A stretch of 64,000 bases of DNA from Candidatus Omnitrophota bacterium (GTDB lineage Bacteria > Omnitrophota > Gorgyraeia > JAFGGP01). Numbering within the stretch: position 1 is the stretch's first letter; each line of letters starts with the position of its first letter. This document shows positions 3,112 through 11,340 of this stretch, one piece after another. Position numbers and translations under genes: made by a program. The notes beneath the pieces were generated by a model that saw only the letters and a list, made by a program, of their open reading frames with translations, did no database searches and had not been told where the DNA came from. Location: positions 12,452 to 76,451 of the forward strand of contig JAFGGP010000021.1 in assembly GCA_016930485.1 (NCBI GenBank), given 5' to 3'.

Positions 3112-3582
3112 CTATGCCTTCTTTTTCCTGCAATTATCGCACATGCCGTAAAATTGAATCATATGATTGGTAATATCAAACTGGTATTTTTTGGCCAGTC
3201 CCTCTTCCGCGCGTTTTAAAAACTCGAGTTCTTCATCGATAAAGTCGGTATAGTTTATCACCCGCTTGCACGAGGTACACACCAGGTGATGGTGGTGTCC
3301 TTCTTTTTTTGGGCCCTCGGCCAGTTCATATCGCGCCCTGCCGTCTCCAAAGTCGAATTTGTGCACCAGGCCCATATCGACCAAAAGTTCCAGTGTCCTG
3401 TAAATAGTCGTAAGGCCTACGGACGGACACGATGGATGTACCTTTAAATAGATGTCCTCGGCACTCAGATGAGCTTCGGCCCTAGTGAGCACATGGAGAA
3501 TGGCCTCCCTTCCTAGGGTAATCCGGTATCCGCATCCCCTGAATCTACCGTGCCACCATACAGGCCCCCTCGGTCCCGGCAT
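3112..3582 (-). CDS. Fur-family metalloregulator (Fur/Zur/PerR type not resolved)
   Basis: Winged-helix N-domain, GHHHHLVCTSCKRV and a C-terminal CDNC pair. RBS AAGGAGGGG. Confidence 0.9.
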   Translation of the reverse strand: MPGPRGPVWWHGRFRGCGYRITLGREAILHVLTRAEAHLSAEDIYLKVHPSCPSVGLTTIYRTLELLVDMGLVHKFDFGDGRARYELAEGPKKEGHHHHLVCTSCKRVINYTDFIDEELEFLKRAEEGLAKKYQFDITNHMIQFYGMCDNCRKKKA

Positions 3583-4629: not shown

Positions 4630-6369
4630 CTATTTTTTACGCCCGTCACCATTATCATCGATCGGTTCTCCGGTAGGGCCAGTGCAAAAAGCCCCTTCCG
4701 CCAGTCTTGTCTGTTGAGCCAGCATCATGTCACTATCATATGCATCCCTAGAGTTTAAGAATGACAGATACCCGCCTGATATGTTGGCCGTTTTATATCC
4801 CCGTTGGGATAAAATCCTGCAGGCTATGTGCGCCCGTATCCCTACATGGCAAAATACGATTATCTCCTTGTCGCTGGGTAGTTCTGGCAGGCGTTCTCTT
4901 ATCTCATCAACCGGGATGTTGACTGAATTGGGGACATTTCTTTCGGTGTGTTCCTTTGCCGTCCTTACATCGAGCAGAAACTCCTCGCCGGAAAGCTCTT
5001 CCCAATGTACCAGCTCGGTAATACCTCTGATATGATTTAAGGCCGTCATGCCCGCCAGATTAACGGCGTCTTTCGAGGACCCGTAGGGGGGCGCGTAGCA
5101 CAGTTCCAGCTCTGCTAGATCACGAACTGTCATCTTTTGTTTCACTGCTACCGCGAGAATATCCGCTCTTCTGGCAATCCCGTTTCTCCCCACTATTTGT
5201 GCCCCGAGAACAATCCCGCTGTCTTTCCCGTAGAGCAGTTTCAGCGCCATCTGCGTTGCGCCGGGGTAGTATCCCACGTGGTCGGCCGGAAAGGTATAGA
5301 CCTTTTCATAAGATACACCCGCTGCCCTCAGGGTTTTCTCACTGGCACCTGTCATGGCGGCCGTCAGGTTGAAAACCTTGACAATCGAAGTTCCCAATGT
5401 ACCTTTATATTCGTCTTCTATGCCGAACAGAGTATTTACCGCCACCAGCGCCTGTTTGGCTGCCGGCCCTGCCAGAGGGACATTGCGCCTCAGGCCCGTA
5501 ACAGGGTCTTCTGATTCGACAACATCACCTATGGCAAAAATTGACCCATCGGATGTCCTCATCTTCTTATCCGTCACAATCCCCTTTTTGCCTGTCTCAA
5601 GTCCGGCATCCCTGGCAAGCTGTATTTCGGGATAAACGCCGATAGCCATAATAATCAGATCCGCTGTAAGACGTCTTTCGGAAGATAGTATTACCTCCCA
5701 CCGGTCATCCTCTACGGTTATCCTCGTTACCTCGCTGTCAAGGTGAAGCCTGATATCATGTTCGCCCAGTTCGCGGTGCAGGATAACCGCCATCTCTTTA
5801 TCCATAGGCGGCATTACCTGGTCCATTTTTTCGATAAGGTGGGTCTCAATCCCCCGCTCGCGAAGATTTTCTGCCATTTCTATACCGATAAATCCCGCAC
5901 CGATCACAACCGCTCTTTTCACGCTACCGGCGTCGAGTTTTTCCTTTATCCTTTCTATATCCGGGACCGTCCGCACGGTATGAACACACTCGAGCGAAGC
6001 TCCCTCAAAGGACAGTCTTATCGGTTCTGCCCCTGGTGAGAGAATAAGACAGTCGTACGTCTCCTGATATTCCTTCTTTTTTTCATAATCTCTCACTGTG
6101 ACTAACTTGGCTTCTCTATCGATAGAGATAACCTCGCTTTTGATGCGCACATCTATGTTGAATCTTTTTCGCAGACCTTCCGGTGTCTGCACAAGAAGAC
6201 GTTTCTTCTTTTTAATTACATCGCCGGCATAATACGGCAGTCCGCAATTCGCAAAAGAAACATACTCGCCTCTCTCAAACAAGATTATCTCAGCGTCTTC
6301 GCTGAGCCTCCTTGCACGTGCCGCCGCACTGGCGCCGCCGGCGACGCCGCCCACTATAACCAGTTTCAT
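4630..6369 (-). CDS. CoA-disulfide reductase / NAD(P)H persulfide reductase fused to a rhodanese domain
   Basis: FAD-binding motif VIVGGVAGGASAA, redox Cys in SFANCGLPYY, a second Rossmann motif VIGAGFIGIE, and a C-terminal rhodanese active-site loop FCHVGIRA. Confidence 0.9.
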   Translation of the reverse strand: MKLVIVGGVAGGASAAARARRLSEDAEIILFERGEYVSFANCGLPYYAGDVIKKKKRLLVQTPEGLRKRFNIDVRIKSEVISIDREAKLVTVRDYEKKKEYQETYDCLILSPGAEPIRLSFEGASLECVHTVRTVPDIERIKEKLDAGSVKRAVVIGAGFIGIEMAENLRERGIETHLIEKMDQVMPPMDKEMAVILHRELGEHDIRLHLDSEVTRITVEDDRWEVILSSERRLTADLIIMAIGVYPEIQLARDAGLETGKKGIVTDKKMRTSDGSIFAIGDVVESEDPVTGLRRNVPLAGPAAKQALVAVNTLFGIEDEYKGTLGTSIVKVFNLTAAMTGASEKTLRAAGVSYEKVYTFPADHVGYYPGATQMALKLLYGKDSGIVLGAQIVGRNGIARRADILAVAVKQKMTVRDLAELELCYAPPYGSSKDAVNLAGMTALNHIRGITELVHWEELSGEEFLLDVRTAKEHTERNVPNSVNIPVDEIRERLPELPSDKEIIVFCHVGIRAHIACRILSQRGYKTANISGGYLSFLNSRDAYDSDMMLAQQTRLAEGAFCTGPTGEPIDDNGDGRKK

Positions 6370-6402
6370 AATATGTATCCCTTTCTCCTGAAGATATCCC
6401 GT

Positions 6403-6573
6403 TCACCTGCTTATGGCAAATAGCAACCCCAGAATGGCACCGTACACAGCCCCCCTAAGGGGGGTGCTTGTCAGGGGGCACGTCCCGCTTGCGCATCTGC
6501 CGAAATAACCCATACCCGCACCAAGTGCCGCACCCAGCGCCACAACGGCCATTTTTTTAACTATCTCGTTCAT
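6403..6573 (-). CDS. small membrane protein (DUF6132-like)
   Basis: MNEIVKKMAVVALGAALGAGMGYFGRCASGTCPLTSTPLRGAVYGAILGLLFAISR. I use the internal ATG at 6573 because GGAGA sits upstream and the start clears the trxA stop. Confidence 0.6.
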   Translation of the reverse strand: MNEIVKKMAVVALGAALGAGMGYFGRCASGTCPLTSTPLRGAVYGAILGLLFAISR

Positions 6574-6593
6574 ACATGTCTCCTCATGCCTGC

Positions 6594-6917
6594 TTACGCA
6601 TTGCAATGCGGTTCCACCATTTTTGCGATAGCCGACCTGGAAAGAACGCCGACGCTCTGGCCAGCTACTTTGCCGCCCTTAAAAACGATCAGGGTTGGGA
6701 TGCTCATTATTCCGTACCGCGAAGCAACGCCCGGGGCCTCGTCCACATTCAGCTTAACGACCTTTAACCTCCCCTGATATTCCCTGGCAATATCCTCAAC
6801 CGCCGGGGCGATCATGTGACAGGGTCCGCACCACGGTGCCCAGAAATCCACCAATACGGCGATATCAGACTGCAAAACCTCCTCTTCAAAATTCGCATCG
6901 TTCGCCATGACCTCCAT
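6594..6917 (-). CDS. trxA: thioredoxin
   Basis: WAPWCGPC active site, about 107 aa. Confidence 0.95.
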
Positions 6918-6928
6918 AAGTTCCTCCT

Positions 6929-7204
6929 TTAGGTTTTATTCACGCCTGTCAAAAGCTGCCTTATCAGTTTCTGGTCGCGTAAACAATAACATCTCTGCTT
7001 GCCTTCCTGTCTGCACTCCACGATGCCGCTCAATTTTAAAAAAGAAAGGTGTTGTGAAAGATTCGGCTGGCGCACCTTCAGGAGTCCCTGCATATCATTG
7101 ACGCACTTTCTGCCGTTCAGCAACTCTGAAACAATGAGCAGTCTTGTCGGATGGGAAAGGGCCCTGAAAAAAGTAGCGGCCTTTTGACAGTCAACGTATT
7201 CCAT
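6929..7204 (-). CDS. ArsR/SmtB-family transcriptional regulator
   Basis: [18 protein letters not shown]...[18 protein letters not shown] start it at Met 7204 (MEYVDCQK). The longer ORF would read through its own promoter. Confidence 0.85.
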
Positions 7205-7225
7205 GCGGCACCCCCTTTTTGTATA

Positions 7226-7273
7226 ATCATATTCGAATATTAGAATATTATCATATTCTTGCCTGCCTGTCAA
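7226..7273 (-). promoter_or_regulatory. sigma-70-type promoter with hexamer-palindrome operator for the arsR-trx-CoADR operon
   Basis: The minus strand reads TTGACA (7273-7268), a 17-nt spacer, then TAATAT (7250-7245). This overlaps GAATAT-GATA-ATATTC and ATATTCGAATAT palindromes. Confidence 0.6.
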
Positions 7274-7407
7274 GGGCCTCGTTTTTTGCCGTACCCGATC
7301 AGGGCTTCTTGCGTACTCGCCAGGTCGTCCGCGCGTTCTCTCTTTCGAAAAGGATTCCAAAATGCCAGCTGTACTACCTGATTAATAGACGCGTCTTGCC
7401 GGGCCGG

Positions 7408-7445
7408 AAAACAAAACCCCTGCAGCAGTAACTGCTGCAGGGGGG
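7408..7445 (-). terminator. rho-independent terminator after the Cys-rich peptide gene
   Basis: The minus strand reads CCCCTGCAGCAG-TTA-CTGCTGCAGGGG followed by TTTTGTTTT. Confidence 0.85.
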
Positions 7446-7473: not shown

Positions 7474-7695
7474 TTACGAACCGGCACAGCCCGCGGAGCA
7501 ACCCGCACCGCATGCGCAAGTATCGCCCGCACAACATGACTGGCCGCTGCACTGGCAGGTACCATCGGTACAGCAGGCGCCCTTTTCACACGAACAGGTA
7601 GTCGTTGCACAACAACTGCCGGCCGCTACTGCTGCAAGACCAGAAACCTGTATCAGAAACGCCACTATTACCAGAATGAGAATAAGGTTTCTCAT
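7474..7695 (-). CDS. secreted Cys-rich (metallothionein-like) peptide
   Basis: Signal-peptide-like MRNLILILVIVAFLIQVSGLAAVAAGS is followed by a 46-aa tail with 14 Cys (CC, CxC and CxxxC motifs). It is co-oriented directly downstream of csoR. Confidence 0.7.
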   Translation of the reverse strand: MRNLILILVIVAFLIQVSGLAAVAAGSCCATTTCSCEKGACCTDGTCQCSGQSCCAGDTCACGAGCSAGCAGS

Positions 7696-7711
7696 CGTAA
7701 CCTCCTTGTGG

Positions 7712-7993
7712 TTAGATTTTTCTGAATTTTTTTATCAGCATCATAATCTCTTCGAGTTTTTCCTGCTTGTCGCTTTTCGAAGCCCCTTCCATCGCGCTGG
7801 TCACGCACCCCTCAAAGTGCCTCTCGAGTATCGCATCCTCAACCCGCGCAAGGGCAGCCACAACCGCACGGATCTGGACCAGGATGTCTACACAGTACTT
7901 TCCTTCTTCGATCATCTTCTGTATCCCGCGTACCTGCCCCTCAATCCTTTTGAGGGCAACCAGGTTGGCAGTGTGGTCAGGATAGGTACCCAT
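7712..7993 (-). CDS. csoR: CsoR-family metal-sensing repressor (Cu-type C-H-C ligand set)
   Basis: LKRIEGQVRGIQKMIEEGKYCVDILVQI...ERHFEGC places Cys, His and Cys at the CsoR ligand positions. Strong RBS AAAGGAGGAG. Confidence 0.9.
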   Translation of the reverse strand: MGTYPDHTANLVALKRIEGQVRGIQKMIEEGKYCVDILVQIRAVVAALARVEDAILERHFEGCVTSAMEGASKSDKQEKLEEIMMLIKKFRKI

Positions 7994-8016
7994 AACTCCT
8001 CCTTTCTCTCAAAGTG

Positions 8017-8036
8017 TACCATACCCCCCTATGGTA
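8017..8036. promoter_or_regulatory. CsoR/RcnR type-1-like operator
   Basis: TACCATA-CCCCCC-TATGGTA has perfect 7-bp inverted arms around a C6 tract. It lies 24-43 nt upstream of the csoR start. Confidence 0.65.
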
Positions 8037-8517
8037 TGTCAATGATAATCATGGCTGGTTCATAAAAGGGCGGGGCAGTAATTTATGTAACTATACTAAT
8101 TTAATTTGTTAACAAAAAATAACAGATTTTTTAAAAAAGAGCTCATATAGCCATTTTTCATATACCCTACCTTAACTGCCAGGATGTAGGCTCGTAGTTT
8201 ACCAGTGATCTCTGTCTCATCGAAGCCGCCTATCATAACGCTTATCCTGTTCAGGTCTGCAGTGGATCGATTCAAAAACAGACTCATTCTGCCGGTGGGA
8301 TAGCCTGGGCTCCTGGCAAGAAAACAGCGCCCTTGCTTAAACAGAACCGGCTTTCCGAAAGATGGAATAACAGGGATAGCCGTGTAAAAATTGCCGCAGC
8401 ATCACAGCATTAAGTTCTCGCTTGCAGTTAGGGAAAATACATACTACAATGACACCTGTTGCCCCCGATAAAAAGTCGTTTGTTGCGGGGCCAAAATCGT
8501 AAACCCGAGGAATATAC

Positions 8518-9657: not shown

Positions 9658-10215
9658 TTATGTAATTACTTTGGCCAGAAACTGCGCGAAGACCCCCGCA
9701 AGAGGCGGAAAAATCAGGACGCTCAGGAAGCGGATCAGCGTTAACCGCCACCCCAGAATGCCCACTTCCATCGGCAGTCTGTTCACTGCCCACAACGACC
9801 AGCCGGTCAAAAACGCCACCATAGTCCCTGCGCCGGCACCTGAGCGTATTAATCCGGCCGCGATCGGCAGGCTCACATAGGGGCCACCGGGGGCAAGTGC
9901 ACCCGCGACGGTGCCGATCCATATGCCCCGCATGCCCGATGTCTCGCCGATCCACTTTGCGAGCGCCTCACCCGGCAAAAGGACCTGTACCATCCCCGCG
10001 ACAATAAAGGCGAAGATAAGAAGCGGCAGGATCTCGAGGGTCATTCCAAATGCCAGCTTCATTCCGTATGGGTGCTGTCCCTTCGCATACGCCACTCCTG
10101 TCAATACAATAGCCAGTATAACCATGATGCCGGTAGGAATAAACATGTGTGCTTTTCTCCCCGTTATCTTTGAATAAGTGTTGGTGTGTGGTGCCTTCCC
10201 CATGAATTTTGTCAT
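9658..10215 (-). CDS. polytopic membrane permease (family uncertain, DUF318/ArsP-like)
   Basis: About five hydrophobic segments. RBS AAAGGTGA. It starts 15 nt after the ZIP gene stop, so it is probably co-transcribed. Confidence 0.55.
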   Translation of the reverse strand: MTKFMGKAPHTNTYSKITGRKAHMFIPTGIMVILAIVLTGVAYAKGQHPYGMKLAFGMTLEILPLLIFAFIVAGMVQVLLPGEALAKWIGETSGMRGIWIGTVAGALAPGGPYVSLPIAAGLIRSGAGAGTMVAFLTGWSLWAVNRLPMEVGILGWRLTLIRFLSVLIFPPLAGVFAQFLAKVIT

Positions 10216-10230
10216 GCTATCACCTTTCCC

Positions 10231-11043
10231 CTATCCAAACGCCACATCGAGTATCATCATAACCAGAAATCCCAGTATCGCCCCGGCTGTAGCCAGATCC
10301 GTATTGCCGTTACGCTGTGACTCGGGGATGACCTCTTCGACCACCACAAAAATCATCGCCCCGGCGGCAAAGGCAAGGGCATACGGCAGAAGCGGCCTGG
10401 CCAGAAGCACAGCACCTGCCCCGATAACACTCGCAATGGGCTCAACCACGGCGGAGAGCTGCCCGTACCAGAAGCTTTTGAAACGCGTTATCCCCTCACG
10501 GCGAAGCGGCACGGATACGGCAAAGCCCTCGGGAAAATTTTGAATGCCTATCCCTATAGCCAGAGTCACCGCCGCAGCAACGGTTGCCGAAGGAAGGCCT
10601 GCCGCGGCCGCACCGAAGGCAACACCGATGGCAAGGCCCTCGGGGATATTGTGCAGGGTTATTGCCAGGACAAGGAGGGTGCTTTGCCGCCACGACGTCT
10701 TTATGCCCTCCGCCTCATCCCGGGGAAATCCAATGTGAAGGTGTGGCAAGATGTTATCAAGCAAGCGCAAAAATGCGGCCCCCAGCAAAAACCCTGCCGC
10801 CGCCGGAAACCACTGCCCGATTGTGTTTCCTTCGGACATCGCAATAGCCGGCCCCAGGAGCGACCAGAAACTCGCTGCTATCATCACCCCTCCCGCAAAG
10901 CCGAGCATGGCATCAAGAACCCTCTGGTTGAATGTCCCTGAGGTAAATACAGCCGCCGCACCGCAGGCGGTAATGCCCCAGGTAAAGATACCCGCCAGGA
11001 GTGCCTGCATAACAGGATTATACCGCTCGAGAAAATGTATCAT
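10231..11043 (-). CDS. zupT: ZIP-family divalent metal transporter (ZupT-like)
   Basis: [10 protein letters not shown] and [10 protein letters not shown] signature helices. I start it at Met 11043 ([10 protein letters not shown]), giving about 270 aa as in ZupT. Confidence 0.88.
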
Positions 11044-11340
11044 GCGCGTTTTTCGTCTGAGATAACGAACCGTCTGCATCAAAGCAATAGCGGCGACCAT
11101 CCGCCGCATATCCGATTCTATTATAGGACGGCCGCTATCCGGAAATCAAGGCTACATTGGAAAGTCGAAAATAAAAAGCACCATAAAGAATGTTCTTCAT
11201 AGTGCTACGCACACTCCTATCTCTTTCCCCAGAACTAACGGGCAATATCACCTGTCTATGTTCGACCAAAAGGTCGACGTTCTTTTTTTATCCCTTTCAG
11301 GCCTACCTTTGGCCCCCGTCCTTTCCTTTCATATCTTCTT

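Follow-up and report, generated by a model that had tools for sequence, protein, structure and literature searches.

The known bacterial metallothioneins are cytosolic, and SmtA is directed at zinc and regulated by SmtB. Reviews of 2020 and 2024 list bacterial metallothioneins as cytosolic only, namely SmtA/BmtA and MymT, and attribute extracytoplasmic copper sequestration to folded proteins such as Csp1, CopL and CusF (PMC7558416, PMC11672702). MymT, a mycobacterial copper metallothionein of the RicR regulon, is a very small Cys-rich Cu(I) binder under a CsoR-family Cu(I) repressor (PMC7558416, PMC11672702); Csp1, which is thiolate-rich, serves as an extracytoplasmic store for many Cu(I) ions (PMC7558416); and CopL, a surface lipoprotein of the Staphylococcus aureus CsoR regulon, sequesters copper extracytoplasmically (PMC11672702). 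Here, we describe a locus from an uncultured Candidatus Omnitrophota bacterium, located in a 64,000-nucleotide stretch of contig JAFGGP010000021.1 (the whole of the analysed stretch is referred to as the window), in which a csoR gene is followed by a 73-residue open reading frame (ORF) for a Cys-rich mini-protein. Judging from its sequence and by analogy with characterized systems, this small protein is probably a Cu(I)-derepressed, Sec-exported, metallothionein-like thiolate sponge.

The locus departs from each of the described systems. MymT is cytosolic, has no signal peptide and lacks the triple CC-x4-C-x-C arrangement (a distinction drawn here by description), whereas the window protein is predicted to be exported and co-transcribed with its own repressor. 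Csp1 folds into a four-helix bundle before export, assembles into tetramers and leaves the cytoplasm in the folded state through the twin-arginine translocation (Tat) pathway; a copper storage protein of this type (four helices lined with Cys, ~ 120 residues) was considered and rejected, since the mature part of the small protein has 49 residues, no modelled helix and no family match, and its signal has no twin-arginine motif. In CopL, Cu(I) is bound by a distinct architecture within a folded lipoprotein, and the protein is not a Cys-cluster mini-protein (PMC11672702), although some members of the family described here are lipoprotein-like. The closest likeness in composition is to SmtA/BmtA and the eukaryotic metallothioneins, which are small, contain about 30% Cys in CC and C-x-C motifs, have no aromatic residues and are probably disordered without metal; however, neither group is related in sequence to this family. 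The canonical CsoR operons (for example, copZA) have the same type of repressor, but here one exported mini-protein makes up the cargo in place of a P-type ATPase or CopZ. No exported or periplasmic bacterial metallothionein, and no paper on such a protein, was found in the searchable literature. We therefore rate the chemistry and the regulator as known and the protein family and its compartment as new. An earlier note on this DNA, made from the letters alone, had likewise set the protein apart from cytosolic bacterial metallothioneins and four-helix Csp proteins, and the searches agree with it: there is no family, Pfam or PDB match, and no four-helix fold was modelled.

The key question is whether the small ORF represents a protein family at all. 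An exhaustive HMMER search with the small ORF against 1.84 billion representatives returned 24 full-length relatives of 67-85 residues (E 3.9e-09 to 1e-03, 35-52% identity) and one further match, an unrelated repetitive protein. A word-indexed protein search with the same ORF gave no match, and a profile search through the word index recovered 10 members only. The family is small and almost entirely made up of metagenomic sequences, which fall into clusters of 1-3 sequences each that are nameless or labelled 'hypothetical protein'. The window protein and the 24 homologues were aligned (alignment A1), and all family statistics refer to these 25 members. They share one layout: a signal peptide, three CC-x4-C-x-C units with 2-4 residues between them and a tail that contains Cys. 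Ten alignment columns do not vary, namely M1 and nine cysteines (C34, C41, C42, C47, C49, C54, C55, C60 and C62); C28, C29 and G45 are near-invariant, and the residues between vary freely. The Shine-Dalgarno sequence AAGGAGG lies at 7707-7701, 5 nucleotides (nt) before the ATG of the small ORF, and GGAGG-type sites precede the homologous small ORFs by 5-9 nt in most related loci. Because the full-length homologues combine invariant cysteines with variable residues between them, and because the ribosome-binding sites are strong, the small ORF is, on this comparative evidence, a real, conserved protein gene under selection.

The mature part of the window protein (49 residues) contains 14 Cys, that is, 29%, with no Phe, Trp, Tyr, His or Met; three tandem CC-x4-C-x-C units are followed by a Cys-rich tail. 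The signal-like segment and the 46-residue tail with 14 Cys described in the earlier note are exactly as quoted there, the tail starting at C28. In the family as a whole, the mature length is 44-52 residues in 24 of the 25 members and 61 residues in one, and the mature part holds 13-15 Cys (27-32% in 24 members, 23% in the 61-residue one). Aromatic residues are absent in 23/25 members, and His and Met are nearly absent. An odd number of Cys (13 or 15) is found in 15/25 members, so not every Cys can sit in a disulfide. Tandem Repeats Finder detected no DNA-level repeat in the small ORF, which indicates that the three peptide repeats are old. With its low mass, ~ 30% Cys in CC and C-x-C motifs and scarcity of aromatic residues and His, the protein falls, by its sequence, within the compositional definition of a metallothionein, outside the known metallothionein sequence families. 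Among the 25 members, the sole match to a metallothionein Pfam family was one to Metallothio_6, with a non-significant E of 0.36, and a PDB profile search with the family returned nothing, even at E 10. The AlphaFold2 model built from the 25-sequence alignment has a predicted local distance difference test score (pLDDT) of 56 overall; it shows a helix at residues 2-18 only, the signal helix reaching a pLDDT of 71-79, and the mature part stays below 55 with no helix outside the signal peptide. Apo-metallothioneins are disordered (PMC7558416), and the low pLDDT of the model fits a metal-dependent fold.

Where would such a protein reside? The window signal peptide has R2 as its one basic N-terminal residue, a 17-residue hydrophobic core (mean Kyte-Doolittle value of 3.85 over 11 residues) and A-V-A at residues 22-24, after which signal peptidase I would be expected to cleave; a twin-arginine motif is absent. 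In all members, 1-3 basic N-terminal residues and a strongly hydrophobic core are followed by an A-x-A-like site before the first CC, except that a lipobox-like Cys takes the place of this site in four proteins (P0122, P0133, P0142 and the related protein of L012); it comes after small residues with Leu or Met at -4 and has a short linker behind it. The occurrence of both cleavage types within one family argues for an extracytoplasmic location, and we infer that the family is Sec-exported and extracytoplasmic.

The regulator is less unusual. The csoR product matches PF02583 (E 9.9e-27, 93.6 bits against a cut-off of 22.8) and also the NCBIfam RicR model, below that model's cut-off (E 3.6e-21). 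Its best solved relatives are the Cu(I) CsoRs of Geobacillus (PDB 4m1p, E 2.7e-20) and Streptomyces (4adz); in the alignment, C34, H59 and C63 fall in the ligand columns of both structures, Y33 precedes C34, and the structure of the persulfide sensor CstR (7mq1) has Asn at the position of the His. The published ligand fingerprints are x-C-H-C for Cu(I) CsoR, H-C-H-H for RcnR, P-C-H-x for FrmR and x-C-N-C for CstR (PMC11672702). Because C34/H59/C63 fit the x-C-H-C rule and the solved Cu(I) CsoRs, the repressor is assigned by its ligand residues to the Cu(I)-type CsoRs, in keeping with the Cys-His-Cys pattern already recognized in the earlier note. A 100% identical protein in NCBI comes from a Candidatus Omnitrophica metagenome-assembled genome, and the closest relatives of the repressor are mostly from Omnitrophota.

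The csoR promoter is sigma-70-like, with an 18-nt spacer and 10/12 matches in the promoter scan, and a perfect palindrome occupies the whole spacer between the -35 and -10 hexamers, overlapping the first 2 nt of the latter. This palindrome is unique in the window at up to 3 mismatches, with 0 occurrences expected from 100 shuffles. It has the features of a CsoR operator, that is, a G/C tract, AT-rich inverted-repeat flanks and overlap with the promoter, and these are kept in relatives. The box closely resembles TACCCTACGGGGGTATGGTA, which we take to be the operator of Bacillus subtilis copZA. Among the loci fetched through relatives of the window CsoR (loci are designated by L numbers), about 23 of the closest 59 have the box TAC[CT][AC]TA-(G/C)6-TATGGTA at a distance of 15-50 nt in front of csoR. 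A strict arm-plus-tract palindrome finder missed true boxes with one tract substitution and was replaced by fuzzy matching. L084 and L173 have an alternative palindrome, ATACCCCC-T-GGGGGTAT, which directly abuts TTGACA as in the window. L093 has an identical box, ahead of the gene for a CsoR of about 60% identity; the genes that come next encode an outer-membrane efflux protein (OEP, E 3e-43) and a membrane-fusion protein of the CusB type. More distant relatives of the window CsoR precede CopA/HMA genes, and these cargos tie the CsoR clade to copper. On sequence criteria, neither the repressor nor the operator stands out within the Cu(I) CsoR group. Boxes of this type also occur at more distant CsoR loci from Omnitrophica WOR_2, Nitrospinota and others (L005:4287-4700, L009, L019 and L024), where the predicted cargo is an exported or membrane protein of 92-138 residues with CC/CHCC clusters; the ORF begins 5 nt past csoR in L009 and 2 nt past it in L019, and searches assigned the L005 protein to no family.

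The elements of the locus, all on the minus strand, form a self-contained two-gene unit (Table 1). A ribosome-binding site, AAGGAGGAG, lies just upstream of csoR after a short leader. The terminator hairpin (7443..7417) begins 31 nt past the stop of the small ORF and has a 12-bp stem with 9 G-C pairs; its RNA fold has an energy of -26.6 kcal/mol (z = -4.1), and 0/200 shuffles fold equally well. As both genes are bracketed by their own promoter and terminator, and the next gene has its own promoter, the unit is a self-contained bicistron. The arrangement reported in the earlier note, in which csoR is followed 16 nt later by the 73-residue ORF, with a perfect palindrome upstream and a strong terminator downstream, is thus in place throughout, and so is the view that the small ORF is the only cargo, since the window has a single copy of the operator and the small ORF is followed by the terminator.

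Table 1 Coordinates of the features of the csoR unit in the window and of the FHPP genes in related loci
Feature	Coordinates	Strand	Basis
-35 hexamer TTGACA of the csoR promoter	8037..8042	minus	promoter scan, consensus
-10 hexamer TACACT, with TG in front	8013..8018	minus	promoter scan
Predicted CsoR operator, perfect palindrome TACCATA-C6-TATGGTA = TACCATACCCCCCTATGGTA	8017..8036	no strand	read directly
csoR	7712..7993	minus	93-residue ORF, PF02583
Intercistronic spacer, 16 nt	7696..7711	minus	read directly
Small ORF, 73 residues	7474..7695	minus	read directly
Signal-peptide codons, residues 1-24 = MRNLILILVIVAFLIQVSGLAAVA	7624..7695	minus	predicted from sequence layout
Mature domain, residues 25-73, 49 residues, 14 Cys	7477..7623	minus	alignment and composition
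Intrinsic terminator CCCCTGCAGCAG-TTA-CTGCTGCAGGGG, then T-run TTTTGTTTTC	7407..7443	minus	terminator scan
FHPP genes in related loci	L162:2611-2916, L164:2656-2958, L167:2605-2958, L168:2018-2347, L171:2133-2465, L012:902-1222

Another important question is how far this gene order is kept across the family. In five lineages (the window, L082, L084, two P0121 contigs and L173/L174), csoR, encoding 93 residues, lies 12-24 nt upstream of the mini-protein gene, and the CsoR box is present inside the promoter of the csoR-linked lineages wherever DNA is available. A second arrangement was found in L162, L164, L167, L168 and L171, where the mini-protein gene directly follows a gene for a protein of 100-117 residues (alignment A2), which we refer to as the FHPP protein: it has an N-terminal hydrophobic segment, a C-x-C-C motif, a further Cys/His cluster and an invariant C-terminal F-H-P-P. 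The two arrangements are joined by L012, in which the order is csoR, FHPP protein and Cys-rich lipoprotein. The FHPP gene is often not called by annotation and is absent from the window.

Seen from the side of the repressor, the genes downstream of csoR were tallied in the 20 distinct loci whose CsoR reaches 60% identity or more. A small exported Cys-rich ORF follows 13-26 nt downstream of csoR in nine of them, a porin-like protein of about 340 residues in seven and another gene in three; in the remaining locus, no gene follows. The nine small ORFs are of three types, i.e., the 73-residue family, a type of 52-56 residues, e.g. GGCCGSQKACTCAKCPCDGTCTCGCSCCGK, and a type of 42-50 residues (...DCQCAPCACEACKC). 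Matches of the shorter types to the family profile are weak (E 6e-05 to 0.17 in a set of 10,005 ORFs), and these types could be either truncated relatives or analogues. No family in Pfam or NCBIfam accounts for the small protein, and the same is true of the shorter Cys-rich types and of the FHPP proteins. The shorter peptides that follow csoR (L091:4295-4453, L089:4308-4466, L085:4305-4475, L002:4306-4470, L088:4307-4459 and L039:4733-4873) have 42-56 residues including a predicted signal peptide and contain 6-11 Cys. The porin-like cargo was seen after close CsoR homologues with the same operator in L104:4294-8201, L083, L087, L090, L095, L098, L099, L101 and L103; the protein of ~ 340 residues starts with ...FYKEVNLIGGYSDRD..., and its match to Porin_4 is weak and sub-threshold. 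In L104, the porin-like gene is followed by genes for a 209-residue unknown protein, a DUF4920 protein and a MacB-type ABC transporter (FtsX + ABC), and the set may be an uncharacterized copper-responsive envelope system.

How might the unit work? At low copper, tetrameric CsoR would bind the 20-bp palindrome and, given the promoter architecture seen here, exclude RNA polymerase. If the mechanism follows that of characterized CsoRs, rising cytoplasmic Cu(I) would be bound by C34/H59/C63, and CsoR would leave the DNA. The transcription signals predict one short mRNA, which would comprise csoR and the 73-residue ORF and end at the terminator; the unit would be autoregulated, with csoR transcribed from the promoter that its own operator occludes. 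The pre-protein would be exported unfolded via Sec and cut after A-V-A, and the 49-residue mature peptide, with its 14 thiols, would wrap Cu(I) in periplasmic thiolate clusters, with a capacity of perhaps 6-10 Cu(I) per peptide by analogy with copper metallothioneins. In this way, the peptide might buffer copper that is expelled by CopA-type P-type ATPases or enters from outside. Sec export would suit a protein that is disordered until it meets its metal, unlike the folded, Tat-exported Csp1 (PMC7558416). There are precedents for both halves of the proposed control: CopL for an extracytoplasmic copper binder controlled by a cytoplasmic sensor (PMC11672702), and RicR and MymT for a metallothionein controlled by a CsoR-family repressor (PMC7558416, PMC11672702). 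The organism likely lives under anoxic conditions, which fits the proposed sponge in that a periplasmic multicopper oxidase could not work there and thiols would stay reduced.

For the wider proposal we see about even odds: these proteins would be the first Sec-exported (in some members lipid-anchored) bacterial metallothionein family, which would carry out CsoR/Cu(I)-derepressed sequestration of periplasmic Cu(I), possibly together with the FHPP membrane protein, as the anaerobe's stand-in for oxygen-dependent periplasmic copper oxidases. If this holds true, metallothionein chemistry would gain a new compartment and a new protein family, in the form of a disordered thiolate sponge under a cytoplasmic Cu(I) sensor, and the finding would suggest a way for anaerobes to cope with periplasmic Cu(I) when oxygen-dependent oxidases are not available.

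Several observations weigh against the interpretation as a copper-controlled sponge. Control by CsoR and copper is not universal for the family: about half of the examined members have no adjacent csoR, and in L162, L164, L167, L168 and L171, neither an adjacent csoR nor a CsoR box was found. On the conservation of csoR as a neighbour, a point the earlier note had left to be checked, csoR is a recurrent immediate neighbour, adjoining the gene in five lineages. The window protein shows no similarity to known metallothionein families (Pfam Metallothio*, SmtA/BmtA), and the low AlphaFold2 confidence may reflect the shallow alignment of 25 sequences. Moreover, the window member is atypical, with 1 Lys only versus 3-15 basic residues in its relatives and a tail ending in GCAGS rather than C-x-C. 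Finally, if a Dsb system is active in the periplasm, it would put the cysteines into disulfides.

These points raise the question of which other functions could account for the locus. The protein could be an exported thiolate protein that is not a bulk copper buffer and serves instead as a relay to an efflux or outer-membrane partner, in delivery to a cuproenzyme, in binding another thiophilic metal (Ag, Cd, Zn or Hg) or as a periplasmic scavenger of oxidants or reactive sulfur. A partner is hinted at by the FHPP protein, whose gene precedes the mini-protein gene in five lineages and lies between csoR and the lipoprotein gene in L012, and a hand-off role is made plausible by this protein and by the cargo of sibling CsoR loci, which consists of genes for Cus-type efflux or for porin-like proteins of the outer membrane; the window neighbours (ArsR/BigR-like, thioredoxin, DUF6132 and coenzyme A (CoA)-disulfide-reductase-rhodanese genes) add a context of sulfur and redox stress. 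However, the x-C-H-C fingerprint points to Cu(I) and not to persulfide (x-C-N-C) or Ni/Co (H-C-H-H), the sulfur-stress genes, located past the terminator, are served by a promoter of their own and do not recur beside the homologues, and 14 thiols in 49 residues exceed the need of a single-site chaperone. Functions of this kind are, in our opinion, rather unlikely. Less probable still, the product may be a secreted peptide held together by a disulfide knot, whose control by CsoR is incidental and whose role (for example, as a bacteriocin, a signal or a component of the envelope) does not involve metal. The proteins are indeed small, exported, Cys-rich and mostly Lys-rich, like many antimicrobial or knotted peptides, and the window member has an even number of Cys. 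Against this, the majority of members have the odd Cys counts given above, there is no hydrophobic core, one Gly is the sole conserved residue other than Cys, no immunity or export gene lies nearby, AlphaFold2 gives no confident fold and the recurrent neighbour is a copper sensor.

The remaining two possibilities concern the nature of the product. The ORF could encode the precursor of a ribosomally synthesized and post-translationally modified peptide (RiPP), with a Cys-rich core modified by a radical-SAM or cyclodehydratase enzyme. A B12-binding radical-SAM gene does lie 270 nt downstream of homologue P0132, and the protein has a weak, sub-threshold match to TOMM BorA (E 0.0078, 16 bits against a cut-off of 60). 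But this neighbour is confined to the L164-166 lineage, one of more than 10 lineages examined; no maturase is conserved, the other downstream genes (for Thi4, an acyltransferase, a chorismate-binding enzyme and a rubrerythrin-like protein) are unrelated, no modifying enzyme lies between the window promoter and terminator, the BorA match spans 16 low-complexity residues, and the N-terminus has the form of a classical signal for Sec or for lipoproteins and not of a RiPP leader. We consider a RiPP precursor very improbable; the earlier note had named it as an alternative and had pointed to the lack of an adjacent modifying enzyme. The parts of its interpretation that lend themselves to computation were all borne out; neither of the outcomes it had named as telling against the proposal and open to computation, an ORF without conservation or homologues consistently next to RiPP-modifying enzymes, was encountered, and the homologue search it had called for yielded the 24 full-length relatives. 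That the small ORF is a chance, untranslated reading frame might be suggested by its shortness, its low complexity and the empty word-indexed search, but the idea is effectively refuted by conservation, i.e., by the 24 full-length homologues, which are 35-52% identical and share invariant cysteines. With a strong Shine-Dalgarno sequence at conserved spacing, a conserved position after csoR and before a terminator, and annotation by gene callers on a Logan contig, it retains almost no probability.

The surroundings of the unit in the window also deserve a description. Beyond the terminator lies a separate operon (4630-7360, minus strand) with its own TTGACA promoter at 7273, which encodes an ArsR-family repressor, a thioredoxin, a DUF6132 membrane protein and a 579-residue pyridine-nucleotide-disulfide oxidoreductase. 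The latter is CoA-disulfide-reductase-like and has a C-terminal rhodanese domain, and the best named NCBIfam match of the repressor is the sulfite-sensing BigR, below the cut-off; the operon resembles a persulfide or sulfide stress unit. A link of the small ORF to the ArsR, thioredoxin and CoA-disulfide-reductase-rhodanese genes was considered and rejected on account of the terminator, the separate promoter and the absence of these genes beside the homologues. Further flanking genes on the minus strand encode a FUR-family regulator (3112-3582), an ArsP_1-type permease (9658-10215) and a ZIP-family metal transporter (10231-11109), and the first ~ 11 kb of the window can be read as an island for metal and redox homeostasis.

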